From positions 98-64,097 of the forward strand of contig JAJRSF010000045.1 in NCBI GenBank assembly GCA_024278935.1: a stretch of 64,000 nucleotides of DNA, given 5' to 3'. This stretch comes from Candidatus Zixiibacteriota bacterium (GTDB taxonomy: Bacteria > Zixibacteria > MSB-5A5 > GN15 > FEB-12). A program made the translations under genes and the position numbers. Shown here piece after piece: positions 38,796 through 56,300 of this stretch. How positions within the stretch are numbered: position 1 is the stretch's first letter; every line of letters begins with the position of its first letter. Below the pieces are notes generated by a model. That model had not been told where the DNA came from, searched no databases, and was given only the letters and a program-made list of their open reading frames with translations.

Positions 38796-39162
38796 TGGGG
38801 GTGACCTGGCTTCGACGGGTATAGTGATTGGTTATCTGCGTGTCGGAGATGCTTAGATCTTCGTTATCAAAACTTAAGCAAACTTTTTTAATTGGCGAAA
38901 ATAACTACGCCCTCGCTGCCTAAATTTAATTTAGGATAAACAGCGCGCTGCCTTTCATCCTACTGTCTCCCGGGTGATAGCACAGCGTCGATAAAGGAGA
39001 CTCGACTGGTTGACGCCTTTAATTCCAGTTTAAACTAAAGGCTGGCTACAGGCTACGCCTGTCTTTCGGCAACGCTTGTAGCGAGAACTAATAGGAAGAC
39101 TACACACGTAGAAGATGACAGGCTGTTATATTCGGACGGGGGTTCGATTCCCCCCACCTCCA
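38796..39162 (+). ncRNA. ssrA: tmRNA (transfer-messenger RNA)
   Basis: The 5' end is GGGGGTGACCTGGCTTCGACGGG. The tag ORF GGC GAA AAT AAC TAC GCC CTC GCT GCC TAA (38894-38923) encodes GENNYALAA. The T-arm is GGGGG-TTCGATT-CCCCC, and the 3' acceptor strand CACCTCC pairs with 5' GGGGGTG. The discriminator is A and CCA is not encoded. Confidence 0.95.
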
Positions 39163-39330
39163 TTAATATTCTTTCTTTTGTAACTCATTGGCAAACAACA
39201 ATAAGCGCTTGAAAACCAAGCGTTTACATGTCTCTTGCACTTGAATAACCCTTAATAACTACCAATAACTTACAACGATAGTGGTCACAATGCACTTGCG
39301 AAAATAGTCCCATTTAGCTATGTTCTAAAT

Positions 39331-39447
39331 ATGGCACACCTATTTGAAAGACGTGGTATTTACTGGATTGACTACCGGATAAATAGTAAGAGGTTTCGGA
39401 TTACAACTGGTACTTCTAACAAGAAACATGATTTGCTTAAATTGTAA
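39331..39447 (+). pseudogene. Remnant (38 codons) of a tyrosine integrase N-terminal arm-binding domain
   Basis: MAHLFERRGIYWIDYRINSKRFRITTGTSNKKHDLLKL* resembles the K-R-G..W.IDY..NGKR.R.STGT.NKK start of many phage-type integrases. It lies directly after ssrA, and no catalytic domain follows. Confidence 0.6.
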
Positions 39448-39600
39448 GAGTGTTGTTTTGCTTAGGGATCATTATAGTAGATATCAACAACCCTCAACGT
39501 TTTTTACAATTGAGGGCTTTATGTTGAATACAAAGTTTGCTTTTCTTATTAATTTAACTTAAAAGTTTAGTTTTAATTCATCGCTCATTTACTTTCTTTA

Positions 39601-40860
39601 TTATTTGCTGGTTGTGAACTGAATTGAATGGCTCCTCCATATTGTATCAATCATTCCCGAGGAGATGTTTTTCATTTTATTAACAACACTCTGTCGAACA
39701 AGAAGCGGAGGATCTGTTTTTAGAAACTCAAGTGCAAGTTGTAAGCCTTCTTTTTGATTAATATCCAAAAGACGATAAACAATTGTTGTGCGAATTTCCA
39801 TATCATCTGAGGTGTTGAAAATTTTCACTAATTTTGTAGTCTCACCAATCAGCGTTATCTGATTCACGTCGATAATTTCGTCATCTTTTGTTTCAACTTC
39901 TTTTTGAACAGTAGGGAGAGGTACATAGGAGTTCTGTTTCATGTTGTGATTCTTTGCTGTCGGATTTGAATAACCCGATAATGATAGAAACCAGACAAAG
40001 AGCACCACAGCGGCGACTAAGGAACTAACAGCAGTTGTGGTCTTAGTTACTCGCATTTGACGCAGAGATGAGGCAAAGATTAGAGCAATACCAAGGAAAA
40101 AAGCAATGGAAGGTCCTACCGAAAAATCGAACGCATCGGCAAAAAGTAAACCTATTCCAGTTGAAACAGCACCGGTAATCCATGTTATAATCAACCGCTT
40201 ATTCCAGTTTTCTGAGAAGACCGCAGAAAGTGTAGCAGGAATAATGAGAAATGTAAAAACTACGATTACACCAGCAATTCGGACAGCAATTGTAATAACA
40301 ATACCAACTAAAGCGTAGAAGATGAAATCCCACATAGCAGTTTTCATCCCTTGCCGGACAGCACCTTCGTAATCATCTGATATTTGAGCAAATGGTTTTC
40401 TGAAAAGATAAAAACATAGTCCCGCTACAGTGAAGATAACTCCGCACAGGAGAACATCCTTGGGGGTTGTCCATAGAATACTACCCGCAAGCATTTGATG
40501 AATATGGAGATGTCCCCCCGGCGAAACTCCCACCAAAAAAAGTGCAAGAGCTGCAGCAATGGCGTAGGTAACACCAATAACAGCCTCAAGCGGAATTCCA
40601 ATATCCCACTTTCGTATAAGTGAATAAAAGCTGGCAACAACAAGAGTAGCTCCAAAAGCACATATATATCCTATCAGCGAATCACTATGAGCTTCAAAAG
40701 CAAGATGTGCCGCTATGGCACCTACGGCAGCAACTTGTGCCATTGAAATATCTATGAAAATAATCTCACGTTTGAGAACATGAATACCAACGTATCCTAA
40801 AATAATTGTCATTTCCAAAGCGACAATAAAAGGCAGACCCAGAAGAGAAATAATATCCAT
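39601..40860 (-). CDS. Metal ABC transporter permease (ABC-3 family) with a ~140-aa C-terminal extension
   Basis: The start MDIISLLGLPFIVALEM overlaps the upstream stop (TAATG). The first ~270 aa form an ABC-3 permease core, followed by an extra TM helix and a soluble tail. The upstream part of track ORF 39601-41181 overlaps the neighbouring gene in another frame. Confidence 0.8.
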   Translation of the reverse strand: MDIISLLGLPFIVALEMTIILGYVGIHVLKREIIFIDISMAQVAAVGAIAAHLAFEAHSDSLIGYICAFGATLVVASFYSLIRKWDIGIPLEAVIGVTYAIAAALALFLVGVSPGGHLHIHQMLAGSILWTTPKDVLLCGVIFTVAGLCFYLFRKPFAQISDDYEGAVRQGMKTAMWDFIFYALVGIVITIAVRIAGVIVVFTFLIIPATLSAVFSENWNKRLIITWITGAVSTGIGLLFADAFDFSVGPSIAFFLGIALIFASSLRQMRVTKTTTAVSSLVAAVVLFVWFLSLSGYSNPTAKNHNMKQNSYVPLPTVQKEVETKDDEIIDVNQITLIGETTKLVKIFNTSDDMEIRTTIVYRLLDINQKEGLQLALEFLKTDPPLLVRQSVVNKMKNISSGMIDTIWRSHSIQFTTSK

Positions 40861-41696
40861 TATGATTCTTCCTTTATTCGAGTATGTACTTGCACAGGTT
40901 TTATTATCTTCATCAAAACAGCTCCCAAGAAACATATCCCTAATGCAAGAACAAGAGTAGGTCCATAGGGTAAATTTGCATTGTAAGACAGTACCAATCC
41001 AATAACACAAGCGACAAATCCAACACTCCATCCGATAACAACAGAATGGAGCCATCCTTTGGAAAACATGGCGGCAATAGCAGCCGGAATCATCAGGAAT
41101 GAATAAGCCAATAATACTCCGGCAATAGGTACAATCAAAACAGCAATAATCCCCTGAGTTGCAAAGAAGAAAAAGTCCCACAGCTTTCTATTTTTTAGCG
41201 ATTCAGGGTTCTCTGTAAGTGCAATAAATTTATTCCTGAACTTGTAATGAAAGATCAGAAGTACAATGTAAATTGCTACGGTTATAGCAACAAGTGACCA
41301 ATTTGTCCAAAGCATGGAACCGGCCATAGTTTTTGTCACATAAGCATCTCCTCCGCTGAGTTTATCACTAATAAGAAGGGTAGCAACAAGTGCCAGAGAA
41401 AATATAATTCCGATGACTGCTTCACGCGGGATGAGTGGAGAACGAGGATTTATTGCCACTAGAAGATATGAACCTACTAGAACTGCAAGTGTGGACATTA
41501 TATAAGAACCACTCGTAGCATACTGAACACCAATAGCAATACCTATCAATGAACCGAGGGCTGCAAGCTGAGCCAAAGCAAGATCACTAAAAATTATAGT
41601 TCGTCGAATTACATGAAGTCCCATGTATGTATGCAGAATCAGTACTACTGCGATGAGAGCAATTTGCACAGAAAAGAAACTCCATACTTCGTTCAT
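40860..41696 (-). CDS. Metal ABC transporter permease (ABC-3 family, ZnuB/TroC-like)
   Basis: 278 aa and polytopic, with LALAQLAALGS and FLMIPAA motifs typical of the family. It overlaps the binding-protein gene by 4 nt. Confidence 0.85.
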   Translation of the reverse strand: MNEVWSFFSVQIALIAVVLILHTYMGLHVIRRTIIFSDLALAQLAALGSLIGIAIGVQYATSGSYIMSTLAVLVGSYLLVAINPRSPLIPREAVIGIIFSLALVATLLISDKLSGGDAYVTKTMAGSMLWTNWSLVAITVAIYIVLLIFHYKFRNKFIALTENPESLKNRKLWDFFFFATQGIIAVLIVPIAGVLLAYSFLMIPAAIAAMFSKGWLHSVVIGWSVGFVACVIGLVLSYNANLPYGPTLVLALGICFLGAVLMKIIKPVQVHTRIKEES

Positions 41697-42769
41697 TCAG
41701 ACCTCCTAGACAACTTGCTTACAGTCAGCATTCCTTTATTTTCAGCTGCGTTTAACAGTTTATTTATCCAAAGATCAACCATCTGAAAATAGCTATCGCT
41801 GTTTTTGCTACCGCCAACATAGAGTGGGACAATCACCGGTTCTGCATTTGTTCGTTCGGCTACTGCACGAATCTTCTGTTCATCAAAATAATTTGCTGCC
41901 AGAATGATTTGAATATTGTCACTATGCATTTTAGCAACGAGTTCGTTGACATGTTGGGCTGATGGTGGAATTCCTGGTTTTGGTTCTACGGTACCGGCTT
42001 CATCGAGTCCGAAAATACGTTCGAAATAGACCCAGTTTTTGTGATAGGTAACAATTTGTTTACCTCGGAGTGGCATCATTTTTTTCATCCAACCACCGAG
42101 ATAATCAATCAATAGTGTATCTCCATACTTATTTTTTTCGAGAAACGAAATGAGAGTTCCTTTTTCTGTGAGCTTACAAAGTGTCTCTCCACCTAATAGT
42201 TGAACTAATTTTTCTCCAAATAGTTTTGTGTCGAATTCGTTAAGAAGTGTCTGTAAGTTTTTTTTATAATAAGACTTTCTCTCGGGATCATTTTTTATCA
42301 GTCCGGTTGCAATATTACGAGCAGCAATTCTCATTAAGATAGGACTTGAGTTCATATGTGGATTACCATAAATATGGACTCCACCTTCAGAACGTGATAA
42401 TATTTTCGGTTTTTCAAGCAGTGTCATTCCGTGTGATGCGGCAACATAACCTGTTTTACCACTTCGAATATGAGTATTACCGCTTTTGTTGACAACAGTC
42501 GGAAGCCATAGTTCCAAATCAAGACCTGTTGATATTAAAACGTCTGCATTTCGAACCATGTTTACAAATGAAGGCTTTGGTCTGATAAAGTGAGCATCTT
42601 GGTTACCTTTTACAATAGCCTGAACTGTTACATGGTCACCTCCGATTCTTTGTGCAAAGTATGCATAGTCAGGGAGTGTTGTTACCACATTTAGCTTGGG
42701 AGCTTCTGATGCTGATGCAGTAATTATCGATAATACAATTATCAGTAATATAGAAATAGTTTTCATCAT
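41693..42769 (-). CDS. Metal (Zn/Mn-type) ABC transporter substrate-binding protein (ZnuA/TroA family)
   Basis: It has a signal peptide, then LNVVTTLPDYAYFAQRIGGDHVTVQAIVKGNQDAHFIRPKPS...ADVLISTGLDLELWL, matching the family pattern. Confidence 0.85.
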   Translation of the reverse strand: MMKTISILLIIVLSIITASASEAPKLNVVTTLPDYAYFAQRIGGDHVTVQAIVKGNQDAHFIRPKPSFVNMVRNADVLISTGLDLELWLPTVVNKSGNTHIRSGKTGYVAASHGMTLLEKPKILSRSEGGVHIYGNPHMNSSPILMRIAARNIATGLIKNDPERKSYYKKNLQTLLNEFDTKLFGEKLVQLLGGETLCKLTEKGTLISFLEKNKYGDTLLIDYLGGWMKKMMPLRGKQIVTYHKNWVYFERIFGLDEAGTVEPKPGIPPSAQHVNELVAKMHSDNIQIILAANYFDEQKIRAVAERTNAEPVIVPLYVGGSKNSDSYFQMVDLWINKLLNAAENKGMLTVSKLSRRSE

Positions 42770-42787
42770 AATATTTCTCCTAAAGAA

Positions 42788-44185
42788 TTAATATCGTTCG
42801 TGTTTGTGAGGACCGGCGGCAAAGACCATTTGTAATCTTACCATATTTTCATCAGCACCCGTACCTCGTCCGCTTGAGTAGGCGTAACCTGCTCTGAATT
42901 TGACAAAGGGACTTTGATGCCATGTTAGATTAATACCTGTTTGCTGTCGGTATGCATCCTCTGTTGTCGCTACAGAAGAGAGCAGGGGGTTTTGAGCATC
43001 CGCATATGATTTTACTTCAGGATGGTAATAATCAAAACGCAGGGCTAAAGTGACAGTTCTATTAAGCTTTGCAAGAAATGAACTGTAAAATCCCCATGGT
43101 TTGATATGGTCTATACACGAACCATCAGGAACTTGTATTTCTTTATCAACAAAATACGCTTCACTTCGCCACTCGATATTATGATATCGCATTCGGCTAA
43201 GTGGTTCCCAGGCAATTGTAAAATCAATTCCATAAACATAGGATGCCAATGTTTTTTCGATACTGCCGTCAGTTATTTCCCAAGTATCGTTCCATCCGAC
43301 AAAACCGGTTCCGCCGAATTCTATATATGTACTGGGAGAAAGATCTTTATATATTTTGTAGTGTGAAAGTATACTGGGGCGGTTTTTATTATTCTGTCCT
43401 AAAACAAAAGGGTTGTCGCCATCGGTTACCTGCAAGATAATTTCGTGAGTTGTTTGGCTGATTGCTCCGTTCCAGTCAAGTGACAATCCTGTTTGGTTTA
43501 ATCCACCCGGTCCGAATACCATGCGGAGTGCCAGTGGAAAATCAAACCAATCCAAGGCATGTTTGTGCCATCGATTCACAACACCAAATTGCTGTCGGAA
43601 TTTACCGAGTGTGATATTAGTATTGGGGATAATTCCATAACGAGTAAAATAAACTTCACCAAGTTCAGCACCATTTTCATCAATAGGAATTGCTGCTTTA
43701 AATCGTGAATATGGGTCAAGATATGCCTCAAAATGAAGCCCCATGCCCCGGAAGACTATATCAGAGGTTGTTTGTACATCATCACCATCACGATAGAAAT
43801 GAAGCATTTCTCCAGTGACACTTATTTCCGGGTTCATTGCCTGCAAGCCAAGATTTCCTGATTCAAATGTAGTCTCTTCCTGTTTTGGTTGTGTACTTAT
43901 TTCTTTATCAGCTTCAGCCATTGCAGCCTGCCGAAGAGATTCAAGGTCATTTTTTGTTGATTCGTTTTTTTCGTTACTTAATTGTTTAATTTTGTCATTT
44001 AGGTCTTTTATCTGCTCATTATATTTTTTTTCGAGAATACTTATTTGCTGTAAAATATTTTGCAGTTGTTCCTCAATGTTTTGTTGTTTGGTATTGTTCA
44101 CTTTTTTTTGTTGTGCAATGCATAACGGTGCAAATACAATTGAGAATGATAGAGCTGTAAAGAGTAACAATATTTTTAATCGCAT
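42788..44185 (-). CDS. Putative outer-membrane porin with an N-terminal coiled coil
   Basis: 465 aa with a signal peptide and about 70 aa of Gln/Lys/Glu heptad-like sequence. This is followed by an alternating aromatic/Gly beta-barrel-like sequence, an architecture like OprO/P-type porins. It is the first gene of the metal-uptake operon. Confidence 0.5.
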   Translation of the reverse strand: MRLKILLLFTALSFSIVFAPLCIAQQKKVNNTKQQNIEEQLQNILQQISILEKKYNEQIKDLNDKIKQLSNEKNESTKNDLESLRQAAMAEADKEISTQPKQEETTFESGNLGLQAMNPEISVTGEMLHFYRDGDDVQTTSDIVFRGMGLHFEAYLDPYSRFKAAIPIDENGAELGEVYFTRYGIIPNTNITLGKFRQQFGVVNRWHKHALDWFDFPLALRMVFGPGGLNQTGLSLDWNGAISQTTHEIILQVTDGDNPFVLGQNNKNRPSILSHYKIYKDLSPSTYIEFGGTGFVGWNDTWEITDGSIEKTLASYVYGIDFTIAWEPLSRMRYHNIEWRSEAYFVDKEIQVPDGSCIDHIKPWGFYSSFLAKLNRTVTLALRFDYYHPEVKSYADAQNPLLSSVATTEDAYRQQTGINLTWHQSPFVKFRAGYAYSSGRGTGADENMVRLQMVFAAGPHKHERY

Positions 44186-44293
44186 CTATAACTCCTTTTA
44201 AGTTTTTTGAGTACAGCAATATATGAATCACATTATTGGAATGGAATTATTGCAAAACTCATAGATTTAGCTTAGACAAATGAATTTGTTTGG

Positions 44294-44701
44294 CTAACAA
44301 GGAGGAGAGCGAGGACTGTTTTGGGATAAGTCGGGTGATGTAACAATTGATATTGGTTTGAATAAATTGAATATTGTTTTAGTATCTGAAAGAATTGGGA
44401 CAGGAGGTGTGAGTGGATATTCAAAATTGAGGCTAGCAAGTAACAAACATACAAAACAAATACTTGAAAAAGAACTTGTCGATTTATCTGGTATAGAAGT
44501 ATTTGCTAATAGTAGAGCATTGTCTGAAGATACATAATTTATTTGCTGTTCACTGTGACAATGGCTTGGGGATTCTATACAATCAAATTGTTCGCTAGAA
44601 TGATAATGGCTTGCATTAAGGAGGACGGAAAATAATACAAACCAGATAGGTAAAATATAAGATAAAATATTTTTAAATCTATAAATCAATCCATATGTCA
44701 T
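44294..44701 (-). CDS. Hypothetical membrane-anchored His/Cys-containing protein
   Basis: 135 aa with one N-terminal TM helix followed by ASHYHSSEQFDCIESPSHCHSEQQ. The support is weak: ORF length and position upstream of the metal operon only. Confidence 0.3.
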   Translation of the reverse strand: MTYGLIYRFKNILSYILPIWFVLFSVLLNASHYHSSEQFDCIESPSHCHSEQQINYVSSDNALLLANTSIPDKSTSSFSSICFVCLLLASLNFEYPLTPPVPILSDTKTIFNLFKPISIVTSPDLSQNSPRSPPC

Positions 44702-44884
44702 ATCTTAATAACCCATTAATTGTTTTCAATATAATAGAACTCATCAAAGGCGAATCAATCTTGTATCAAAATAATGTAATAGTATGTCTTGTGCAAATAG
44801 ATAGTGAAGTATATTTTAATCTTTTTTAAACAGAGATTCAAATCAAAACCTGAAAAACGATTCCGTAGAAACCACCTAAGAAAA

Positions 44885-44946
44885 GTGGTCACAATAGAGT
44901 TGTAAGTCCTTGTGCCACAACGCGAGCATAGGATTTGCCTCCATTC
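44885..44946. repeat. Decayed internal copy of the island right-end / att region
   Basis: GGTCACAATAGAGTTGTAAGTCCTTGTGCCACAACGCGAGCATAGG (44887-44932) matches 53145-53189 with a few substitutions and one indel. It is followed by GATTTGCCTCCATT, which resembles the att core GATTCCCCCCACCTCCATT. Confidence 0.55.
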
Positions 44947-45075
44947 CCTGTAATCCACTATAAATCATCGTGTTACAGGATTTACCGTGGAGAGATTTTT
45001 ACATATGACCCTCTTTAACACCGAATAACGATCTGCCCAATTAAGTATTTATTAATTTATTAAAAAAAATAAAGA

Positions 45076-45124
45076 TTGACAAATAATTATAATGCACTAT
45101 ATAGGCTAGCAAGTACTAGCTAGC
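45076..45124 (+). promoter_or_regulatory. Putative promoter and palindromic operator of the TetR-RND operon
   Basis: TTGACA (45076-45081), a 16-nt spacer, then TATATA (45098-45103). The 20-bp imperfect palindrome GCTAGCA-AGTACT-AGCTAGC follows at 45105-45124, 12 nt before the GTG start of the TetR gene. Confidence 0.5.
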
Positions 45125-45136
45125 AAAGGAAAAGAA

Positions 45137-45751
45137 GTGAAAAAAAACGAACAAAAAGTCAATAGTCGACAAAAAGAAATTCTAAAAGAAACCATGTTTC
45201 TTATTCGCCAAGGTGGTCTGCAAGCGGTCACGATGAAAAAAGTTGCAGATAGAGTGGGTATTAAGGAGCCTTCGGCTTATCGATATTTTCCAGATAAAAC
45301 AAAACTTCTTATTGGAATAATAAATAGTATAAAAAAAACTTTACTTGCTCCTCTATATAAAATAAAATGTTCTGAAGAGACACCATCGATAAGGCTTAAT
45401 AAAATAGTTACTCGTCATATCAAAACAGTTCTCAAATTAAATGGTCTACCTGTGGTTTTTATGGCGGAAATTGCTTCAAGTAAAAAGCATGATCTTATTA
45501 AACATATTAAACTTATTTTTGAAGAGTATCAGCAGATACTTGATGAAACTATTATGGAAATAAATCCAAACCTATCACATTCATCAGTTCAAGAGTACTC
45601 AATGCTTTTTATCGGAATGTCTGCTTCATTGGCTATACAAAAAAGACTGGGTATAAAAAGTGATGTTGAAAAAGATATATTTAAATCATTATTACCAATT
45701 ACGATTCAAAACATATGCGATACAAAAAATAATAAAAATGAAATTACGTAA
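45137..45751 (+). CDS. TetR/AcrR-family transcriptional regulator
   Basis: 204 aa with the N-terminal HTH ILKETMFLIRQGGLQAVTMKKVADRVGIKEPSAYRYFPDKTKLL. Confidence 0.85.
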   Translation: MKKNEQKVNSRQKEILKETMFLIRQGGLQAVTMKKVADRVGIKEPSAYRYFPDKTKLLIGIINSIKKTLLAPLYKIKCSEETPSIRLNKIVTRHIKTVLKLNGLPVVFMAEIASSKKHDLIKHIKLIFEEYQQILDETIMEINPNLSHSSVQEYSMLFIGMSASLAIQKRLGIKSDVEKDIFKSLLPITIQNICDTKNNKNEIT

Positions 45752-45770
45752 TTAAATTTTAGGAGATAAG

Positions 45771-46258
45771 ATGTTTTTTAAAAAAATAATCATTGTAACT
45801 GTCATTATTCTGTCGTTCAGTACATTTTCGATAGCTCAAACTATTCAAACTCAGGATTCTACAAGTGAAAGTTCTCAGCAGTTACAACTTCCAGAAAATG
45901 TTCGTGTTGTTTTAATTCACGAAATGACAACTATCACAAAACTTATGGGGAATCTACTTGAATATATAGTTCAGGGAGATGCTATAAATCATCATCGACT
46001 GCTTTAGAAATAAGAAATACTAATTTGAAGCAGGAATTTAACTCAGAAGAAATTAAGAAGATTATGAAAATTCTGCCAAAAGGATTTATTAAGTTGGATC
46101 AAAAATTTCATATGACTGCTAATGAAGTGGCAAACGCCGTTGATACAAATGATTTCAAAACAGCGATTAGCCTTTATTCAGAAATGACTCAAAGTTGTCT
46201 TAGTTGTCATTCGGCATATGCAAATGACAGATTTAAGAACCTTAAAACAAAAAAATAA
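45771..46258 (+). pseudogene. Frameshifted small secreted cytochrome c-like protein (C-terminal CxxCH, class II-like layout)
   Basis: ORF 45771-46007 has a signal peptide plus helices. ORF 46025-46258 ends in SCLSCHSAY. The second frame is open back to about 45962, so one indel near 45983-45990 joins them (...LEYIVQGDAI / KSSSTALEIRNTNLKQEF...). Confidence 0.6.
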
Positions 46259-46291
46259 AGTAGGTAGTTGAATAAGGCAGATAGGTGAAAA

Positions 46292-47619
46292 ATGAAATAT
46301 AAAATAATTCTTATACTTATTTTGTTTATATGTGTAACTGAGCAATCTCATAGTCATCCTTCGTTGACTTTAGAGGCAGCACTTGAATTATCGTTGTCAG
46401 TGAATCCATCATTGCTAGCGGACAAGCAAAAACAAAAGCAGCTAAAGCCTCGGTTAGTCAAGCGACGGGTTATTTTCTACCTCAACTCAACTTGAATGCA
46501 GGGTATACAAAATATCAGGAGCCTAGTACGATAACTCCGATTCACGAAATCGGAGTTTTCCCAGCACTTGATGATGAAATCTATAATGCAAATTTCAATC
46601 TTACGTTACCTATATTCGATGGGGGGCGTCGCATGTCTAATCGCAATATAGCTAAAGCATCTGAGAATGAAAATAAGGCTTATAAACGACTTACTGAGCA
46701 ATCGTTGATGCAGCAGATAGCATAACTCTTTCTTTTTGCTCGACAAGTCGATGACCAATTCGATTTAATATATAAACGACTTGATGTGCTCAATCTCCGT
46801 TATCAAGATATTCTTGCTTTAGAAAGCGAAGGAAGAGTTCCTCCAGGAGATGTTGCGTTAGTAGCATCGACCTTAGCATCGGCACAAGCAGATTCGATAG
46901 CAGTATATATCTCAAAAAATCAGATAAAATTGAGATTAGGTTTATTAGTTGGGAAATTTCAACCTATACCTCCTATACTGTCATCGGTTAATAATTCTTC
47001 TACTTAAATAATCAAAGAATATTTTAATTCAGGTGTTATTGATACGAATATAATCGGACCTATACTGGAAGCTGCTATAGCTCGGAATCAAAAATCATTA
47101 GCTGTTTCATCAATTGCTAAAAAAAGTTTTTGGCCTGAAGCTTCGTTGTTTGGATCCTACGTGTATCGTTCAGGAGCAGAATGGGATCCTATTGGTGAAT
47201 GGATGGCGGGAGTTAAACTATCGCTTCCAATTTTTCAGGGAGGTACGAGAATAAATAAAATTCGTGAGGCAAGATCTCTAGCATTTGCTTCAGGTCAAGC
47301 TGTTCTTAGTGCTGAATTAGAACAAAAGACTAATTTACAAATAGCATTAGATGATTTTCGTTCAAATCAAACTCGCTATAATTTGCTTACTCAAGCTGAG
47401 AATGAAAAAATAAAATCAGTGACAGCACAGGAAGAACTATATAAAGCCGGACGTATTCCGCTACGGGATTTACATATTCAGGAACTTGAACTTTTACAAC
47501 TGCAAGTTGATAAAAATAAATTATTGTTCTCAGCAAGATCAGCACTTTTGCGTTATGTCTTTATTACAGGAACATTATCAAAAGAAAAGGCAATAAAGAT
47601 TACCGGAGGTTTACAATGA
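46292..47619 (+). pseudogene. TolC-like outer-membrane efflux factor with one frameshift and two in-frame TAA codons
   Basis: Four track ORFs (46292, 46492, 46786, 47146) together spell a TolC-family protein (LTLEAALELSLSVNPSLLA / QAKTKAAKASVSQATGYFLPQLNLNAGY ... LSLPIFQGGTRINKIREA). The frameshift is at about 46421. TAA codons lie at 46723-46725 and 47005-47007 in the continuing frame. Confidence 0.8.
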
Positions 47620-48680
47620 GATTGAAACAGAAATTATTCAATAGATTAAAAACAATTATTGGTTTTGTTGTTATTATTCTAACGTTACAGATTACGTCAG
47701 GATGTTCAAACGATGATGGAGCAAAAGAAGTAATACAACCTATTGCTGTTCGTGTCAGTAGTCCGCAGTTTCTTGATATGTCTGAGCATTTGACATATAT
47801 CGGTACTGTGCATGCAACAAAAGAAATTCCAGTTATATCACAAGTGCAGGGAACGGTTGTTTCTGTACCAATTGAGGAAGGTATGTCATTTAACAAAAGT
47901 GATGTACTTATCAAATTATCAGTACCTGATTTAGACGCGAATGTGAAGAAACTTGAAGCAGAATATGCATATTGGGAACAACATCTCAATGAAGATAAGA
48001 ATCTATTAGCCAAGAATGCTATCTCACAGGAACAGATAGACATTTCAAAAAAAACTTTTGAAACATCGCAAGCATCGCTGGCGGAAGTAACATCTCGCCT
48101 TAGAAAAGCAAAAGAAATTGCTCTGTTTGATGGAACTGTTCTTAAGCATTTTGTAGAACTTGGTCAACATGTTATGCCGGGTCAATCTTTATTGTTGATT
48201 GGCAATAATCAACTTGAGTTGCATGTTGAAGTCATCCAAGAAGATATTAATAAAGGAATTAAAGTAGGTACTGTTATTAATATAATTACGCATACAGGTA
48301 ATAAAATTGCTTCAAAGATTTCAAGTATCGCATCAGCTCCAACAGGGATTGGCAGAACATTTACTGTTAAAATTCAAATCCCGACACAATCCCTAAATGA
48401 AATTCGTTTGGGAGAAGCTCTTACAGTTGATCTTATTTTAAATCAACAAAAACAGGTTTTATCAGTTCCGGAAACAGCAGTATTTAATAAAGAGAATAAG
48501 AAGTTTATTTTTCTCATTAAAGATAATAAAGCGATTCGTACACCTGTCTCACTTGGGATAAAACAAGCAGGATGGGTAGCAACAGAATTTGATTGGAATG
48601 GCAAAGATCCGGTAGCGGTTTCAAATATTGCAAATCTATCTGACAGCATAATAGTGTATCCTGTAAAAGATGAGAGCTAA
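47616..48680 (+). CDS. RND efflux periplasmic adaptor (membrane fusion protein)
   Basis: 354 aa with a lipobox-like ITSGCSND, then barrel-sandwich, coiled-coil hairpin and beta-barrel order typical of the HlyD/AcrA family. Confidence 0.8.
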   Translation: MRLKQKLFNRLKTIIGFVVIILTLQITSGCSNDDGAKEVIQPIAVRVSSPQFLDMSEHLTYIGTVHATKEIPVISQVQGTVVSVPIEEGMSFNKSDVLIKLSVPDLDANVKKLEAEYAYWEQHLNEDKNLLAKNAISQEQIDISKKTFETSQASLAEVTSRLRKAKEIALFDGTVLKHFVELGQHVMPGQSLLLIGNNQLELHVEVIQEDINKGIKVGTVINIITHTGNKIASKISSIASAPTGIGRTFTVKIQIPTQSLNEIRLGEALTVDLILNQQKQVLSVPETAVFNKENKKFIFLIKDNKAIRTPVSLGIKQAGWVATEFDWNGKDPVAVSNIANLSDSIIVYPVKDES

Positions 48681-48685
48681 ATATT

Positions 48686-51600
48686 ATGACTATATCTGAA
48701 TTTGGACTTAAAAACAAATATACAATATATGCTATTTCTATAGCAGCTATATTTTTTGGAGTGATATCATATTTTTCAATTCCAATACAATTATTTCCTG
48801 ATACTGCTCCTCCTTTGGTAAATGTATTAACTGCATTTCCGGGGGCATCAGCAGAAGATGCCGCCGATTTAGTTTCTGACCCGATTGAAAAAGAATGTTC
48901 AACTCTTGAGGGTGTTTATAATGTCTCATCTACTTCTCAGGATGGAATGTCTGTCGTAACTGTTGAGTTTCGATATAACATTGATGTTGATATGGCAGCA
49001 TTAGATGTTCAAAATGCACTTTCTAGAATACAAGATAAACTTCCTCAGAACATATTAGAACCTCAGGTTTTAAAATTTTCTACATCAGACCGTCCTGTTT
49101 TGACAATGGGATTACAAAGCAACGACCTTGTTGATGTCAGAAGTATAGCTGAAGAAGTTATCGCACCCGAATTGCAACGTGTGGCGGGGGTTGCGGCAGT
49201 TGATGTATTTGGCGGCAATAAACCTGAAATATCTATTTTGGTAGATAGAAACCGTTTAGATATTTATAATATTCCGATTTCAGCAGTTGCTGAAGCTATC
49301 AAACAGCATAATGTCAGTATACCTGCTGGTAAAATTGATTCCAAAGTACAACAATTTACTTTTCGATTACAGGCAGAAAGTAAAACTGTAAAAGAGATAG
49401 CACAGATTCCTATAAGACTTAAAGACGGCAATCGCATTCTTCTGGAAGATATTGCTGAGATAAAATATGGTGGTAGTGAAGATCTCTCTCGTTTTCATGT
49501 GAATGGTGAAAAAGCAATAGCTGTTCAGATATTCAGACAGGATGATGCCAATACCGTTGAAGTTGTTTTACGAGCAAGAGAAAAATTTGAAGAGTTATCA
49601 AAACGTTATCCCGGTATCCAATTTAATGAAGCTGAAGAATCGGCTACCTTTACTCAACTAGTCGTTGATAATATGATAGGCTCTGTTGGTCAAGCCCTGC
49701 TATTGGCTGCGATAATAATATTTCTATTTCTAGGTAGTTTCAAGCAGGGGTTTGTTGTTATTATTTCAATGCCTATGTCGTTTCTTTTGACTTTTGCTGG
49801 AATGAAAATACTTGGCTTAGAATTAAATTTGGTAACTTTAACAGCAATTATTTTGGCTGTCGGGATGGTGGTCGATGCATCGGTTGTAGTATTGGAAAAT
49901 ATAACACGTCGATTCAATGAAGAAAATTTATCACCAGATGAAGCGGCAAGTGTTGGTTCATCTGAAATTCAATTTGCTATAATTGCCGGAAATGCTACAA
50001 CTTTGGCAGTATTGATACCCCTATTATTTTTGTATGGTTTCATTGGTAAAACTTTCGGCCCTTTAGCGGGAACACTTATTCTTGCCTTTCTTTCTTCACT
50101 TGTTGTAGCCTTAGTCATCGTACCAATTTTAACAACAATGACATCAGGTAAAGGTGGCAAGCTAGAAGATTTTTCCGAAAAGATATCTGCTCCTTGGAAT
50201 AATCTGATGAATATAATTAAAAAAGGGTATCTGTTTTTATTAGAAAAGTCATTAACCAATAGATGGATAGTTTTTGCTTCGGCAATATTACTTCTTGCTG
50301 TCGGATTAATGTTCATTCAAAAACAGGGAAGTGAACTATTACCGATTATGGATAGTGGTAATGGATTTGTTACTGTTGAAACAACCTCGGGGTCATCACT
50401 TGATCAAACAGAGTCCGTGCTTAATGAAATTGAACGGCTTATTCTTGAAGACCCGGATGTTTTACAACTGTCTACTCAAATAGGATTTGAACCAGGGATG
50501 CACTCTTTGGGTGGCGGGGGTGTACAGGGTCCTACAAAGGGATATGTTTCGTTTACATTGACACCACGTAATGAGCGAGATAGGACTATTTGGGAAATTC
50601 AGGATAATTTTCGTGAAAAATTTAGTAAAGTTCCAGGTATCGAAAATCTTGTAGTACGTGAATCAGGATCTACAGCGAAAGCTACAACAGCATCTTCTAT
50701 TGTAGTCAGTATTCGTGGGGAAGATCCGTTAGTGCTTGATAAGCTTGGCGATGAGGTTCTTGAAACAATAAAACCTATTGAGTCGGTTACTAATCCGTAC
50801 CGAAGTTGGCGACGAGATCAAAAAAATATTCTGTTGTCAGTTAACCGTGACCGTGCTCTTGAGATCGGTTTTACTCCTGCATTTGTGGCAAGAGAACTGG
50901 CATATTCACTTGATGGTATTAACGCTGGTATGCTACGAAACCCGCTTGGGGATGATACACCTATTAAAGTTCGTTATGATAAAAAATTCCGTTTAACTGA
51001 AAGAGATATATTTGAAGTACGAGCAGTTTCACAAGTAGATGGTCAATCAGTACCTCTTGGAGCGATTGTTAATAAAGAAGAAAAATTGGTTCAAGACTTA
51101 GTGACTAGAGAAAATCTTCAACCTACTTTGGATATCTTAGCACTTCATCAGGGTCGTGCTCTAAACTTTGTAGTTGCTGATGTTGTTCAAGCAATAGAAA
51201 AACTGGTAGTTCCAAAAGGGTATTCAGTAGAATTGCTTGGCGAGGATAAAGATTTAAAAGAGTCAAGAAACGAATTGATATTCGCATTAATCATTGCTTT
51301 TGTTGGAGTGTATCTGTTGCTTGTTGCACAGTTTAAATCATTTATACATCCTATTACTGTTTTGATGAGCATTCCTCTTTCTCTTTTTGGAGTTGGAACA
51401 GCTCTTTGGCTGGGTGATAAATCTATTTCAATGCCTGTTATGCTGGGGTTCATTTTGTTGATAGGTATTCTTGTTAATAATTCAATTATACTTATAGATG
51501 TTATTCGTCAACATCGTGCAAATGGAATACAAAAACGTAAAGCTATTATTGAGTCAGTAAATTTAAGATTCCGTCCGATTATGATGACATCGCTTTCAAC

Positions 51601-51808
51601 TATAGTGGGAATGATACCGCTCGCTATGGAATGGGCACTTGGTGCTGAAAGATTTTCTCCTTTGGCTATTGCTGTTATCGGAGGAATGACTGCATCGACA
51701 TTGTTGACTATGATAGTGATTCCGGTACTCTATGACAGCTTCGACGAAATTACTACGAAGTTGTTTAAGTCTAACTCAAACGATCTTGAACAGGTGACCA
51801 ATGAATGA
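48686..51808 (+). CDS. RND efflux transporter permease (AcrB/HAE family)
   Basis: 1040 aa with 12-TM topology, two large periplasmic loops, and conserved TM4 acidic and VVDASVVVLENI motifs. Confidence 0.9.
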   Translation: MTISEFGLKNKYTIYAISIAAIFFGVISYFSIPIQLFPDTAPPLVNVLTAFPGASAEDAADLVSDPIEKECSTLEGVYNVSSTSQDGMSVVTVEFRYNIDVDMAALDVQNALSRIQDKLPQNILEPQVLKFSTSDRPVLTMGLQSNDLVDVRSIAEEVIAPELQRVAGVAAVDVFGGNKPEISILVDRNRLDIYNIPISAVAEAIKQHNVSIPAGKIDSKVQQFTFRLQAESKTVKEIAQIPIRLKDGNRILLEDIAEIKYGGSEDLSRFHVNGEKAIAVQIFRQDDANTVEVVLRAREKFEELSKRYPGIQFNEAEESATFTQLVVDNMIGSVGQALLLAAIIIFLFLGSFKQGFVVIISMPMSFLLTFAGMKILGLELNLVTLTAIILAVGMVVDASVVVLENITRRFNEENLSPDEAASVGSSEIQFAIIAGNATTLAVLIPLLFLYGFIGKTFGPLAGTLILAFLSSLVVALVIVPILTTMTSGKGGKLEDFSEKISAPWNNLMNIIKKGYLFLLEKSLTNRWIVFASAILLLAVGLMFIQKQGSELLPIMDSGNGFVTVETTSGSSLDQTESVLNEIERLILEDPDVLQLSTQIGFEPGMHSLGGGGVQGPTKGYVSFTLTPRNERDRTIWEIQDNFREKFSKVPGIENLVVRESGSTAKATTASSIVVSIRGEDPLVLDKLGDEVLETIKPIESVTNPYRSWRRDQKNILLSVNRDRALEIGFTPAFVARELAYSLDGINAGMLRNPLGDDTPIKVRYDKKFRLTERDIFEVRAVSQVDGQSVPLGAIVNKEEKLVQDLVTRENLQPTLDILALHQGRALNFVVADVVQAIEKLVVPKGYSVELLGEDKDLKESRNELIFALIIAFVGVYLLLVAQFKSFIHPITVLMSIPLSLFGVGTALWLGDKSISMPVMLGFILLIGILVNNSIILIDVIRQHRANGIQKRKAIIESVNLRFRPIMMTSLSTIVGMIPLAMEWALGAERFSPLAIAVIGGMTASTLLTMIVIPVLYDSFDEITTKLFKSNSNDLEQVTNE

Positions 51809-52439
51809 GAATAATATGATGCATACAAAACCTATTTTTAATAATAATGACAACACAGAGGAATTAAGACAAAATATCAGAATAGCAGCACTGAAGCTAC
51901 TATATCATAATGGATATAATGCCGTTACTCTGAAGAATATTTCAGAGGTCGTGCATTTGGAGTTAAGTGATATTTCGGAATTGTATTCCTCTCCGGTTGA
52001 GATACTGACAGATGTAATTCAATGGGCTATAAAATTCGGAGATACACTTGGTTCTGAGTTGGAATCAATTGCGGATCCACATGCGAAAATTGAAAAATAT
52101 ATCATTTTACACTTCGCATTTTTAGATTCAAATCCGGAAATGGCTACTCTTCTTCTTGCCGACGAAAGCATCTCCGGATCTCGTCGAATTCAAAGTAAAT
52201 TACGGCAATTGCGATCTCATCGTATAGGATTGTTAAAAAGCATTCTTGAGGCAGGGAAAAACGATTCGCGGTGGGTTAGCGATGATGCCGAACAGATGAC
52301 ACTTCTGATTTTAGGATATATGCGAATGAAAATTGCTTCTTGGAAACAATCTAACAAGCAAGACTCTTTGTATGTCTATGGTAAAATTGCAGCTCGTTTC
52401 ATATTAGAGATATTAGCTTCAAAAACAAAAAACAATTAA
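51801..52439 (+). CDS. TetR-family transcriptional regulator (second one in the operon)
   Basis: 212 aa with the HTH region IRIAALKLLYHNGYNAVTLKNISEVVHLELSDISELYSS. It overlaps the RND gene by 8 nt. Confidence 0.7.
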   Translation: MNENNMMHTKPIFNNNDNTEELRQNIRIAALKLLYHNGYNAVTLKNISEVVHLELSDISELYSSPVEILTDVIQWAIKFGDTLGSELESIADPHAKIEKYIILHFAFLDSNPEMATLLLADESISGSRRIQSKLRQLRSHRIGLLKSILEAGKNDSRWVSDDAEQMTLLILGYMRMKIASWKQSNKQDSLYVYGKIAARFILEILASKTKNN

Positions 52440-52448
52440 GGTGTATAA

Positions 52449-52937
52449 ATGAAATATTATAGTAATAAAATACAAACAGTATTCTTAGTTCTATTAAGCC
52501 TGTTCTTTTCATTTTCTATCATAAATGCCGGTGAGACTCAAGTGGATGATATAATCGGAGTTTGGGCAATAGAAGAAGATGGCGAGACTGTTGAAAAAAT
52601 AGAGATATATAAGTGCGGTGAATTATATTGTGGAAAAATTGTATGGATTAAGCAAACAGATTCAACTGGCACGTTACCGCTTGATGAAAAAAACAAAAAT
52701 AAAGAATTAAGAACACGCCAACTGTTTGGGCTAGTAATTATGAAAAATTTCAAATTTGATGGAAAGAACAGTTGGAAAGATGGGAAATTATATGCTTACA
52801 GAAAAGGGCGAACTGTATCTCCTAAACTAACTCTTATTGATGACCAGCATTTAAAAATCCAGGTAAAAATTTTATTTATAAAAAAGAGTTTTGTTTGGAA
52901 ACGAGTTTTACCCAACAAAGAAAGTGGTCGCAACTAG
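52449..52937 (+). CDS. DUF2147-like secreted protein
   Basis: It has a signal peptide, then GVWAIEEDGETVEKIEIYKCGELYCGKIVW...DEKNKNKELRTRQLFGLVIM...WKDGKLYAYRKGRT. This matches my recollection of the DUF2147 pattern. Confidence 0.6.
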   Translation: MKYYSNKIQTVFLVLLSLFFSFSIINAGETQVDDIIGVWAIEEDGETVEKIEIYKCGELYCGKIVWIKQTDSTGTLPLDEKNKNKELRTRQLFGLVIMKNFKFDGKNSWKDGKLYAYRKGRTVSPKLTLIDDQHLKIQVKILFIKKSFVWKRVLPNKESGRN

Positions 52938-53144
52938 TAAAAGAAGCACATGAAATTATGCCATATAAAAGTAATTGATCTTACTATTTATAAATACCGA
53001 CTGTTTCTATTGTTTTGATGTAAAAGCAATCTCATTAACCAACGATTAGAAATTCATGACCTACTTCTTAGTATCGCTTGCATTCCCATTATATAATCTA
53101 TAAATAATCATGACCAATATGAGTCAACTATTGACTTAAAAAAC

Positions 53145-53233
53145 GGTCACAATAGGGTGTAAGCCCTTGTGCCACAACGCAAGTATGGGCGTCAGTCAGG
53201 CTTTTAGCCTGTTCGATTCCCCCCACCTCCATT
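53145..53233. repeat. Island right end with attR (displaced copy of the tmRNA 3' terminus)
   Basis: 53211-53233 is identical to ssrA 39142-39164. No 5' acceptor or T-stem partner lies upstream, so it is not a gene. 53145-53189 is repeated at 44887-44932. Confidence 0.75.
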
Positions 53234-53307
53234 TTTTTATAAATCAAAACTTAATTCAATATATGATGATATAAGAATGTGATTGTGTTGAGGGTAAGTT
53301 TTCATAC

Positions 53308-53340
53308 AAAAAAAGACCGCCCAAACGAGCGGTCTTTTTC
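53308..53340 (-). terminator. Rho-independent terminator of the PKD-like lipoprotein gene
   Basis: Hairpin GACCGC-N8-GCGGTC with flanking A- and T-runs. Confidence 0.7.
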
Positions 53341-53377
53341 TATTAAATCAATATGTAAGTCTCAAACAATTCAATAG

Positions 53378-56300
53378 TTATTCAGTAATTGAAACAACTA
53401 TGTATGGACCTTCCAAATAGACGGTCGGGTGTTCTATGCACCTCGCCTGAACTCTGACATAGTACCAATCACTTGCATGGACGAAAACATGATCGTCTGT
53501 TAACGAAGTTGACCAGTCAGAATATTCATTTGGAATAGAACCATTACTGTTATAGTAATAAAAACGGTATTCCAGAGCATGTCCTTCAGAACTAGTGGTT
53601 CCGGTGGTTGTATAAGTAAGGTTTGCCCCTACAGTACCGGTTAACGGTCCGGTCGGTGCCAAAAGAGGATCTAATGCCTCACTAATATCAATTGTAGTTG
53701 TTGGTGATATATCTGAGACAATACTAGGATGCGTTGCACAACGTGCTTGGCAACTGATAGTGTATGTACCAACAGAAGTGTATGTATGATACACTCCCCA
53801 AGTAATACTTGGAATCCAATCGCTGAGAGTGCCATCACCAAGATCAAATTGATATTCAATTGCATGACCATAGTTGGAGTAAGAATTATCAGTAGAAACT
53901 TGTATTTCTTCTCCAACATCTCCTGATGATGGATACCTATCTGGTCTGTCAGGTGTGCTTACTAATTCAGGACCATCAGTAACTTCAACTAGAGTACGCT
54001 GAACTGACCATTCTGAAACGGCAATAGTATCAACCGAACAGCGAGCTCTAATGTAAACATCATAGGTGCCGGCTGTTGAGTAGGTGTATGATGCAGTTAA
54101 TGGAGATGCCCAGTCAGAGTAATTTCCATCACCCCAGTCAAATTGGTATTCAATGGCATGACCGGCATCTGAATTTGCAGCAGCGTAAACTTCCCAAGTA
54201 TTACTTTCAGTGATAGATACGTAATTAGGACCTTTTGGACCGTAATCAGTGTATAAGGTGATTTTCTCAATTATAGAAAGTAAAGTAGGTAAAGACCACT
54301 CTGATACAGGGTTGGTATGGCCAGGCCAGATGCACTTGGCCTGTGCTCTTACTTCGTAGTCACCGTGGGTAGTATATCTATGGCTTGCGACGGTATCTAA
54401 TCTTGGCAACCATGCGGTAGTGTCACCATCACCCCAGGCAAACCGATATGAAAGCCAGGAATAACTGTGCCAACTACTGAGAGCACCGGTACTAATGAAG
54501 TCCACGTAAACGTTTCTAAACGCTGTATTGGGACCAGACGGGGCATCAGGGGCACTGACTGTTTCTGGACCAGTGATTATATAGGATATCTCGGACCATT
54601 CGGAAATAATATCAGGATGAGCTACGCATCGAGACTGTCTTGTCAGGGAAAAAGTTCCCAAGACAGTCCAGGTTTTGAAAATTTGAGTATTCATAGCAAT
54701 CCAACCAGTCGTATCGCCATCCCCCCAAGCAATCCTCGATTCGGTATCGTGTCCTAATGAACTAAGGCCACCATAAGCATAATATATTGTCTCGGTATCT
54801 AACATAGGATGATCTTGAGCATCTTGCCAATTTATGTAGCCAGGGGTAGCGACTGTTTCGGTGACCACAGCTAAAATAGTGACTACCAGCGTATCGGAAT
54901 AGATCATAAAGTCATTATGAACCGTACAACGGGCTTTATAAGAAACATTGTAGGTGCCTTCAGTGGTCCACACGTGTGATTGAGTTTGAGTCGATGACCA
55001 ATCTGAAGTTGTGCCATCACCCCAGTCATACTGCCCTTCCATTGGATCGCCCCAATTGGTTGCCGAACTATGGGAGACGGAATATTCATACGACTCGTTA
55101 ATTTGACCTTCGGTAACATTGCCGTAAAGAATACCCGTGTTATAAGAGAATGCTTCGGGCGGATCAGATATAATAATTACTGCCGAATCAGACCAAGCTG
55201 ATTCAATTGTAGGGTGAGATGTGCAACGAGCCTGCATGGCAACATTGTACGTACCGGCTGTTGTATAAGTATGTTGTAATGTTGTCCAGTTATAATACCA
55301 GTTTGACATTCCACCATCACCATAATCAAAACGATATTCCAATGAGTGACCATCGCTGCTTACAGCTCCTCCATTGTTAGTTAAAACCAAGGCTAGATCT
55401 GTTGTTCCGGTAGCAGGAGCTGATGGAGCATCTGGAGCAGAGACTGTTTCACCTGCAGCCAAAATAATTGTAACGGTTAGAGCGGCTGACCAGTCTGATT
55501 CAACTGATATATGAGTTAAGCATCTTGCTTGAACCTTGACATCGTAGCTACCTATAGCGGACCATGCATGTGTAGGAGAAATCCCTACGTTGTACCAACT
55601 GGACATAGTGCTATCGCCCCAGTCAAATCTGTATTGCACATCATCGCCGTAACTGCTCACGGAACCTGCTGTAGTATACCTGAGACTTTCACCTGTCTCA
55701 CCGGCGGTAGGTCCGCCCGGTACATCAGGAACACTGACTGTCTCGGCGGCATAGACAGAGATTGTAACTGTATAGACATCCGACCAATCTGAAATTATTG
55801 TCGGATGAGTAATACAACGAGCCTGTGCTTTGATATCATACGTACCGGCTGTTGCCCATGAGCCTTGAACAGATGTAGTTACCCAGTCAGAGAAATTGCC
55901 ATCACCCCAGTCAAATTTATATTCCAAATCATGACCAAGGTTACTTACAGCACCAGAGGTATTATATGATAAATCTTGATTCTCTATTCCGGTTGTCGGT
56001 CCGGTTATTGTAGTTGGAGCAGATACAGTCTCTGACACTGGCACTGTTATTGTAACAGTTAAAGCGGCCGACCATTCGGATATAAGAGAAGTATGAGTAA
56101 TACAACGTGCTTGAGTTTTAACTTCGTATGTTCCTGCAGTCGCCCAGAAATTTGAAACGGATGTAGATGAATAACTAGAGAAATTGCCATCGCCCCAGTC
56201 AAATCTGTATTCCAGATCGTGGCCAAGATTACTGACAGAACCAATAGCACTATATTCTAACATTTCTGCCTCATCACCCGTTGTCGGTCCGGTTGGAACG

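Follow-up and report, generated by a model that had tools for sequence, protein, structure and literature searches.

A 14-kb segment bounded by repeats of the ssrA 3' end

The DNA analysed here (64,000 nt from Candidatus Zixiibacteriota bacterium, assembly GCA_024278935.1, contig JAJRSF010000045.1, positions 98 to 64,097, forward strand; hereafter 'the window') contains, at 39142-53233, a segment that begins within the 3' end of the transfer-messenger RNA (tmRNA) gene, ssrA, and that is probably a composite of two integrative cassettes. An earlier note, made from the sequence alone, had described it as one island inserted site-specifically at this position between attL and attR. ARAGORN found a single tmRNA in the 64-kb window (38797-39162, + strand, tag GENNYALAA), and Rfam family RF00023 matched at 38797-39165 over the whole model length with 176.5 bits. 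The 3' end of the gene lies in a 23-mer, GTTCGATTCCCCCCACCTCCATT, of which there are exactly two copies in the window (39142-39164 and 53211-53233), even at three mismatches, with none expected by chance. In ssrA the 23-mer begins with the last G of the 5' T-stem, takes in the T-loop (TTCGATT) and the 3' T-stem, runs on through the acceptor 3' strand and the discriminator A, and ends two nucleotides beyond. Williams is said to have named the T-loop, in 2002, as one of the integration sublocations. Near 53211 no 5' half of a tRNA or tmRNA was found by ARAGORN or Rfam, and the direct repeat with its solitary second copy is exactly as the earlier note had it. The landmarks at the two ends are as follows (L0xx labels, here and below, denote relatives' contigs and metagenome loci that were compared with the window):

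38797..39165, +, ssrA, intact, tag GENNYALAA, 3' end rebuilt by the island (ARAGORN, Rfam RF00023)
39142..39164, +, attL core, 23-mer (T-loop, 3' T-stem, acceptor strand), exact repeat
53211..53233, +, attR core, displaced ssrA 3' fragment, exact repeat
53310..53340, no strand assigned, bidirectional terminator hairpin outside attR, after a convergent gene for a 1112-aa PKD protein (scan and fold)

According to the Islander/TIGER account (PMC4383910), integration splits the target gene, the island restores the target and a displaced fragment marks the far end. The segment resembles such classical tRNA/tmRNA islands in having a restored, intact target gene at one end, a displaced 3' fragment at the other and a core in the T-loop, which supports site-specific insertion into the ssrA 3' end as originally proposed. 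The hairpin at 53310-53340 may be the original ssrA terminator. It was also considered that attR might be a longer ssrA fragment, which it is not: when 52900-53400 was scanned permissively with Rfam, the matches were all of terminator type and sub-threshold, and the tmRNA model gave no extended match.

A third junction inside the segment

A repeat search paired 44901-44932, at 88% identity, with 53158-53189, the stretch immediately left of the right-hand 23-mer; in the middle this stretch is followed by ATTTGCCTCCATT, a remnant of the core from which the T-loop is deleted. Three copies of the short sequence GGTCACAAT are present in 64 kb, each inside an att arm and on the + strand (positions 39283, 44887 and 53145; 0.41 expected). 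A 25-nt motif of the P arm, GTAAGNCCTTGTGCCACAACGCNAG, has 56 exact matches in metagenome contigs, and the loci with such a match (n=56) form the metagenome junction set treated below. A junction profile (nhmmer) built from 43 distinct metagenome junctions, with no window sequence in it, matched the + strand of the window at the left end (39138-39298, core and P' arm, E 3.8e-14), in the middle (44882-45030, P arm, core remnant and P' arm, E 4.4e-22) and at the right end (53138-53258, P arm and core, E 6.9e-28). No further match was obtained in the window, even at E<=50. The parts of these sites are:

39165..39298, +, P' arm of cassette A (profile positions 73-233), resembling the P' arms of L008, L010 and L056
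39202-39226, +, terminator-like hairpin in the cassette A P' arm (terminator scan, fold)
39283-39291, +, arm-type site GGTCACAAT in the cassette A P' arm (sequence search)
44882..45030, +, internal junction (profile positions 27-205), made up of the cassette A P arm with its arm site (44887-44895) and 25-nt motif (44902-44926), then a degenerate core lacking the T-loop (44933-44945), then the cassette B P' arm (44946-45030)
53138..53210, +, P arm of cassette B, comprising an arm site (53145-53153), the motif (53159-53183) and a 21-nt hairpin insert (53190-53210)

The hairpin insert is a variant common to L033, L043 and L038. A continuation of the array past 53233 was considered; P'-like sequence follows the core there for just ~25 nt, and there is no further junction up to 64000. 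The segment thus has identical outer cores, the left one joined to a P' arm and the right one to a P arm, and a degenerate inner core, the arrangement of attL and attR seen in cis-mobilizable elements (CIMEs). On this layout, cassette A would extend from 39165 to ~44945 (an integrase stub and a four-gene metal-uptake unit) and cassette B from ~44946 to 53233 (a TetR-controlled RND efflux unit), each bounded by two putative attP halves, P' on the left and P on the right.

The ssrA site in related genomes

The left flank of the segment (genes for an epimerase, a thioesterase and DoxX, then ssrA) is conserved in metagenome-assembled genomes (MAGs) of Candidatus Zixiibacteriota, the flank proteins being 81-92% identical to those of the window in L001, L002 and L005 and about 55-74% identical in L003 and L004. 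DNA homology to L001, L002 and L005 ends at 39163-39170, the last bases of ssrA. Beyond this point come, in L005, genes for a tyrosine integrase of 376 aa, for Fic, for an SNF2 helicase and for a serine recombinase; L001 has a 404-aa integrase, Fic and a restriction-type helicase, L003 a 365-aa integrase, and the integrase-free L002 a glyoxalase and two Ser/Thr kinases. Because the DNA after ssrA differs in every genome, ssrA is a hot spot of synteny breaks. Neither the cargo nor the right flank of the window was found after ssrA in L001, L002, L003 or L005, and the right flank was not found beside any ssrA. No empty site for the 14-kb island was found; L001, L002 and L005 are without the 14 kb, yet have other DNA after ssrA. 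Exact look-ups of the DoxX, RND, PKD and ZnuA proteins of the window led to no other public contig.

A remnant of a tyrosine integrase beside attL

Just to the right of the P' arm of cassette A lies an open reading frame (ORF) that the earlier note had interpreted as a truncated integrase:

39331..39447, +, 38-codon remnant of a tyrosine-integrase N terminus, putative arm-binding region, no catalytic domain (N-terminal profile)

A profile made from the first 60 residues of the L005, L001 and L003 integrases matched this ORF (E 6.6e-6) and none of the others of the 1,338 segments obtained by six-frame translation of the window, which bears out that interpretation. The alignment with the three integrases starts at residue 1 and follows the pattern MA..(F/Y).R..I(W/Y)(W/Y).D......R.R...GTS.K. 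In the full-length proteins about 60 N-terminal residues precede the domains Phage_int_SAM_5 and Phage_integrase, and the N-terminal extension is probably the arm-binding region. The stub alone had no match in Pfam or PHROG, a protein search with the stub, its stop masked, yielded no candidate, and no other tyrosine recombinase was detected anywhere in the 64 kb. Where tRNA/tmRNA islands have an integrase gene beside an att site, this island has only the stub. In IMG/VR the P-arm motif had no match and the best match to the L005-type integrase was only 27% identical; together these give no sign of a phage origin. The P' arms that precede the intact integrases (L005:12640-12700, L001:6195-6235 and L003) contain promoter-like boxes (TTGACA...TATATT) and direct TGTGCCA repeats, the latter resembling the TTGTGCCACAA palindrome of the 25-nt P-arm motif of the window.

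A junction family and cassette arrays in metagenomes

Across the motif loci the layout is near-constant (AAAAACGGTCACAAT-TT-GGTCACAAT-AGGGT-motif-TATGGGGTTCGATTCCCCCCACCTCCA), and in many of them a second conserved block of ~150 nt stands to the right of the core, with a hairpin, AATAAC repeats and a final GGTCACGAT-TT-GGTCAC. This P' block also follows the intact ssrA in L008, L010, L056 and L033 and in the window (39165-39298). A junction of this family thus measures ~250 nt, the ssrA T-loop core standing between a P' arm on the right and, on the left, a P arm that carries GGTCACAAT repeats; copies are 85-100% alike. As judged from sequence, the anatomy is that of a lambda-type attP, in which the T-stem would supply the inverted repeat around a 7-nt T-loop spacer, with arm-type direct repeats on both sides. 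The 25-mer together with the T-arm was also considered as a tRNA-like RNA gene and rejected, since it has no 5' acceptor partner and overlapping inverted and direct copies of an arm-type site fit better. We did not find a description of this junction and cassette family in the literature.

The junctions form same-strand arrays downstream of ssrA. Nearly half of the loci (27/56) have at least two junctions, arrays reach five or six (up to six in L008), and in nine loci ssrA itself lies upstream on the same strand. The host tmRNAs of the array loci are 68-73% identical to that of the window, and the loci range from 38 to 57% GC. Complete cassettes between junctions (n=39) measure 131-7,362 bp with a median of ~2.2 kb. 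The products of their 73 larger ORFs are TPR proteins, kinases, dehydrogenases, ABC-2 transporters, Polbeta nucleotidyltransferases and proteins with a beta-lactamase fold; 95 Pfam families matched, and the 25 of these that were listed contain no recombinase family. An iterated integrase search gave matches only at L044/L054 (Xer-like), L030 (fragments) and L048/L061 (L005-type pseudogene), in each case immediately right of a junction, and no integrase was found flanking ssrA in the window or in the nine ssrA-bearing loci. Cassettes are reused in other arrays with other neighbours: the second cassette of L010 recurs in L032 (96%), the first of L009 within L008 and the ADH cassette of L033 in L046. 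Ser/Thr kinases with the N terminus M..(Q/D)NDDNTH...LTKGT.V.HYRI.EKIG.GGMGEVYLAED are recurrent junction-adjacent cargo (L008, L036, L040 and others), and close kin of theirs stand directly after ssrA in L002 (13245-17388), where no junction is recognisable.

Three loci from one sample (L028:1-260, L023:1-260 and L024:4304-4430) share an identical 127 nt up to ...GGGGTTCGATTC and then diverge, one contig continuing into the right half of ssrA and a P' arm, another into a different right half with what is, by eye, an L005-type P' arm, and L024 ending exactly at the T-loop. This fork looks like population-level recombination or an assembly fork inside the T-loop. At attR of the window, identity to ssrA begins at GTTCGATT, and the two observations together bracket the crossover inside GTTCGATTC, the T-loop. 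The break in L024 means that assemblers do stop at this point, the window appears to come from a MAG and its close relatives are all MAGs, so the window could in principle be a chimera joined at repeated junctions. We consider this highly improbable: the longest exact repeats in the window are 23 nt and its P arms share one 32-nt stretch at 88%, too short to join graphs at the k of ~141 suggested by the contig names of relatives, and L063, another contig of the MAG that includes L001, independently reproduces the middle junction attached to the efflux module.

The same data bear on whether the junctions are recombinase sites in current use. They could instead belong to vertically inherited fossil arrays in which cassettes are gained, lost and shuffled by RecA-mediated homology, or serve as terminators, regulators or RNAs. 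Almost no integrase genes lie in or near the arrays, the junction copies are similar and long enough for homologous recombination, P' arm hairpins resemble ssrA terminators, and the RND module occurs in relatives at core-like identity. Against this, the breakpoint between alternative partners falls exactly in the 7-nt T-loop and is not spread along the homology, the build is that of a classical attP (arm-type direct repeats flanking an inverted repeat around a 7-nt spacer), and the P arm is 90-95% conserved between window and L068 where the adjoining genes are at 74%, in a family whose hosts span 38-57% GC. On this balance we regard inactive or purely homologous junctions as quite unlikely.

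Two smaller features of the arrays were noted. In many P' arms (L056:2470-2510, L036, L049, L020, L060 and L043) the ssrA T-arm is mimicked, ~60 nt past the core, by CCGGACGGGGG-TAYNATA-CCCCCCACC, with flanks as in ssrA and a different 7-nt loop; at this position attL of the window has an unrelated terminator-like hairpin (39202-39226). The mimic may be an extra core-binding site of the integrase, or an ssrA terminator. Within the array of L033 (3504-3705) there is a 200-nt tmRNA 3' fragment, 78% identical to positions 168-368 of the tmRNA of the window, where the usual core is 24 nt.

Cassette A: a metal-uptake module

The genes of cassette A (module 1) are all on the minus strand:

39601..40860, -, ABC-3 metal permease with a C-terminal extension of ~150 aa (PF00950, 1.1e-25); orthologues in L067 and L068, 66-70%
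40860..41696, -, ABC-3 metal permease (PF00950, 4.6e-18)
41693..42769, -, ZnuA/AztC-type metal-binding protein (PF01297, 4.2e-46; NCBIfam AztC, MntC)
42788..44185, -, 465-aa protein at the start of the four-gene unit, without a family match; 71-79% conservation in L067 and L068
44294..44701, -, 135-aa protein, function unassigned, last gene before the cassette A P arm; in the same position in L068 (49%) and L067 (35%)

The four-gene unit (465-aa protein, ZnuA and the two permeases), with no ABC ATPase gene, is also present in L067 (8560-13193) and L068 (8923-13154), the ZnuA orthologues being 77% (L067 P0124; unit 71% at the nucleotide level) and 82% identical (L068 P0123; unit 74%). Since both of these also are without an ATPase gene, the unit naturally lacks one, and decay need not be invoked. 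The L068 homologue of the 135-aa protein is followed by a P arm 90-95% identical to the two P arms of the window, and beyond the last permease there is, read by eye, a pair of P'-type arms; with junction sequence on both sides, module 1 in L068 appears to be a junction-bounded, integrase-free cassette. Elsewhere in L068 (1-2340) an AEP primase-helicase gene adjoins a full junction and is a possible replication or mobility gene of a related element.

Cassette B: an RND-efflux module

Cassette B (module 2) carries the following genes, all on the plus strand:

45137..45751, +, TetR-family regulator (PF00440)
45771..46258, +, cytochrome c'-like pseudogene, frameshift between 46007 and 46025 (intact 165 aa in L063)
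46292..47619, +, TolC-family outer-membrane factor pseudogene, frameshift near 46420-46495 and two in-frame stops (intact 442 aa in L063)
47616..48680, +, RND membrane-fusion adaptor (Pfam HlyD_D23, HlyD_3)
48686..51808, +, RND (AcrB-type) pump (PF00873, 2e-224)
51801..52439, +, second TetR-family regulator (weak TetR C-terminal Pfam matches below curated cut-offs, E 2e-5 to 6e-4; 212-aa orthologue in L063)
52449..52937, +, DUF2147 protein (PF09917, 3.5e-25)

The gene content of both modules agrees with the earlier note except for the supposed porin, as the 465-aa protein had no match in Pfam, NCBIfam or PDB sequence searches. The decay of cargo that the note proposed applies to TolC and cytochrome c', both intact in L063, and does not extend to the ABC unit, conserved as it is in L067 and L068.

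The nearest RND pump (97% identical) is in L063, and window positions 44738-53026 are 91.5% identical to L063 over 8,294 nt, compared with only 80.6-84.4% in the core flank. L063 keeps a more degenerate copy of the middle junction beside the module, and ~130 nt upstream of that copy lies a copy of the ssrA core with what reads as an L005-type P' arm; no P arm was found at the right end of the L063 block. Three further contexts (L064, L065 and L066) have an RND protein ~81% identical to that of the window, with no junction or ssrA within 10 kb of the module in any of them. Taken together, L063-L066 show that module 2 is widespread in the clade, changes its neighbourhood and does not always end in att sites. 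A palindrome-rich sequence, GGCTAGCAAGTACTAGCTAG, at 45095-45125, just upstream of the first TetR gene, is fully conserved in L063 amid variable surroundings and is a likely TetR operator. In L066 (1-748) a large serine recombinase gene stands ~5 kb upstream of the RND module and is a possible mobility gene of a related element.

The earlier note had taken the whole 14 kb for a single island, which in this form would have arrived by one integration into ssrA and decayed in place. Several features accord with that: no cores but the outer 23-mers, which match exactly, are intact, the one integrase stub lies beside attL, the dead middle core makes the 14 kb act as one unit now, and the composite may have arrived in one piece, given the degenerate middle junction attached to module B in L063. 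At the internal site (44882-45030), however, P arm, core remnant and P' arm are correctly ordered and oriented, and the site separates two cassettes with relatives of their own, module 1 occurring alone with the same P arm in L068 and module 2 without module 1 in L063-L066. A single island is therefore unlikely.

The composition of the segment is close to that of its surroundings. Module 1 has a GC fraction of 0.374, indistinguishable from that of the rest of the window (0.378); module 2, at 0.348, is below every 8.1-kb window outside the island (minimum 0.364), some three points lower than the host, and its tetranucleotide distance is ~1.6 standard deviations above the mean. These values fit exchange among similar genomes and say little on age, and the old acquisition suggested earlier gains no backing from them, module 1 being host-like and module 2 weakly off.

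Proposed mechanism

We interpret 39142-53233 as a composite in which two integrative cassettes stand in tandem in the ssrA T-loop, and put the probability of this reading at roughly 0.75. The three junctions, their family, the arrays, the cassette shuffling and the pseudogenes are observations; the identity of the acting integrase, the precise overlap and the succession of events are inferred, as follows. Each P' arm would provide GGTCACRAT arm-type repeats, a hairpin and a 3' end that replaces that of ssrA, and each P arm the palindrome-rich 25-mer GTAAGYCCTTGTGCCACAACGCRAG together with GGTCACAAT repeats. Recombination between attP and the ssrA T-loop would be carried out by a tyrosine integrase whose N terminus has an arm-binding region, with strand exchange inside GTTCGATTC, and every insertion would restore ssrA and move older cassettes outward. 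With the integrase cut to 38 codons and the middle core without its T-loop, the two cassettes would then have become fused into one unit; its outer cores being intact and movable only by an integrase supplied in trans, the fused unit would be a cis-mobilizable element. Relaxase, coupling-protein and type IV secretion system domains were absent from the island proteins in Pfam scans, as in CIMEs that have lost these modules.

Several observations weigh against the composite interpretation. Neither an empty site nor a circular attP form was found for the two cassettes, and their composition is barely atypical. The block shared with L063 (44738-53026) is without att cores at its ends, and in L064-L066 the RND module stands in three other, junction-free contexts at an identity about that of core genes, from which module B may be a long-standing resident of the clade and not a recent import. 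An intact integrase next to a P' arm of the family was not found among the loci examined. Only indirectly can the L005-type integrase clade be linked to GGTCACAAT arms, from the stub, from the L048/L061 pseudogenes beside a junction and from motif-type P arms joined to L005-type P' arms.

Comparison with known systems

The locus fits the known tandem accretion of cis-mobilizable islands at ssrA. In Dehalococcoides, tandem ssrA-specific genomic islands lie downstream of the single-copy ssrA, are bounded by ssrA or a ~20-bp repeat of its 3' end, and in some cases have no integration module and were proposed to be cis-mobilizable (McMurdie et al. 2011, PMC3146451). The window resembles them in its tandem position at ssrA, its repeats of the ssrA 3' end and the want of an integration module in some units. 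The Dehalococcoides islands, however, are phage-sized and use the large serine recombinase DsiB within a six-gene integration module, whereas the window and its family have a tyrosine-integrase remnant, long conserved att arms with arm-type repeats, and mostly recombinase-free cassettes of 1-5 kb. No DsiB/DsiA module is present beside attL, and Pfam scans found no resolvase domain in the island.

CIMEs of the ICESt1 type acquire tandem structures when another element enters the same site, and are occasional decay products of integrative elements that are conjugative (ICEs) or mobilizable (IMEs), usually one or two per site (PMC5704250). The window composite shares with them retained att sites and tandem accretion, but in the junction family integrase-free units are the rule (39/39 complete cassettes, among the Pfam families listed) and arrays have five or six junctions. 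In comparison with ICEs and IMEs, no conjugation or mobilization genes were seen. The tycheposons of Prochlorococcus are tyrosine-recombinase elements that target tRNA genes and the tmRNA gene; newcomers push older ones deeper into the island, remnants with fragmented integrases and partial tRNAs occur, and nutrient-uptake genes are among the cargo (Hackl et al., bioRxiv 10.1101/2020.12.28.424599). An integrase and a module for replication belong to the tycheposons, whereas cassettes of the family described here carry neither, although L068 has its primase-helicase beside a junction; phylum and, probably, integrase clade are different as well. Neither part of the tycheposon hallmark, a recombinase and a primase/helicase, was found in the window island by Pfam scans.

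The arrays also resemble integrons in consisting of small, recombinase-free, mostly one- to three-gene cassettes in varying order with a conserved site between them. In contrast to integrons, they have no IntI, attI or attC; their sites are ~250-bp double-stranded attP-like junctions anchored on an RNA gene, and the platform-resident integrase typical of integrons was not found beside ssrA in the window or in the nine ssrA-bearing loci. What sets the family apart from these systems is its long conserved attP arms, small cassettes and near-complete absence of recombinases across dozens of arrays. Tentatively, it may be a dedicated ssrA-anchored cassette-capture system and not a graveyard of decayed islands, with complete-attP cassettes inserted, excised and reshuffled by a trans-acting tyrosine integrase, a double-stranded, tDNA-anchored analogue of integrons in Zixibacteria-like sediment bacteria of 38-57% GC; for the present we regard this as possible but doubtful.

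Taken alone, the locus is an ordinary textbook tmRNA-gene island of an uncultured phylum, and what it adds is the junction family, a ~250-bp attP-like site conserved at 85-100% across hosts of very different base composition. If cassettes do move by an integrase in trans, Zixibacteria and sediment bacteria related to them would have in this family a compact means of exchanging genes, with metal uptake, efflux, kinases, beta-lactamase-fold proteins and nucleotidyltransferases among the cargo seen. Calls of the Islander type need an integrase gene, and the window composite would probably be missed or called degenerate. Integrase-requiring island finders are likewise expected to miss the arrays, for which, and for the cognate integrase, the conserved junction can serve as a probe.

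Genes to the right of the segment

Directly outside attR lies the gene of the 1112-aa protein (53378-56716, minus strand), a lipoprotein with at least eight PKD domains and no counterpart in any relative fetched. Further right, a PAP2 gene (57272-58129, minus strand) has 71% nucleotide identity to L064:15396-16331, where it is 1.7 kb from the RND module and in the opposite relative orientation; by this proximity the RND module and the right flank of the window may be old neighbours.

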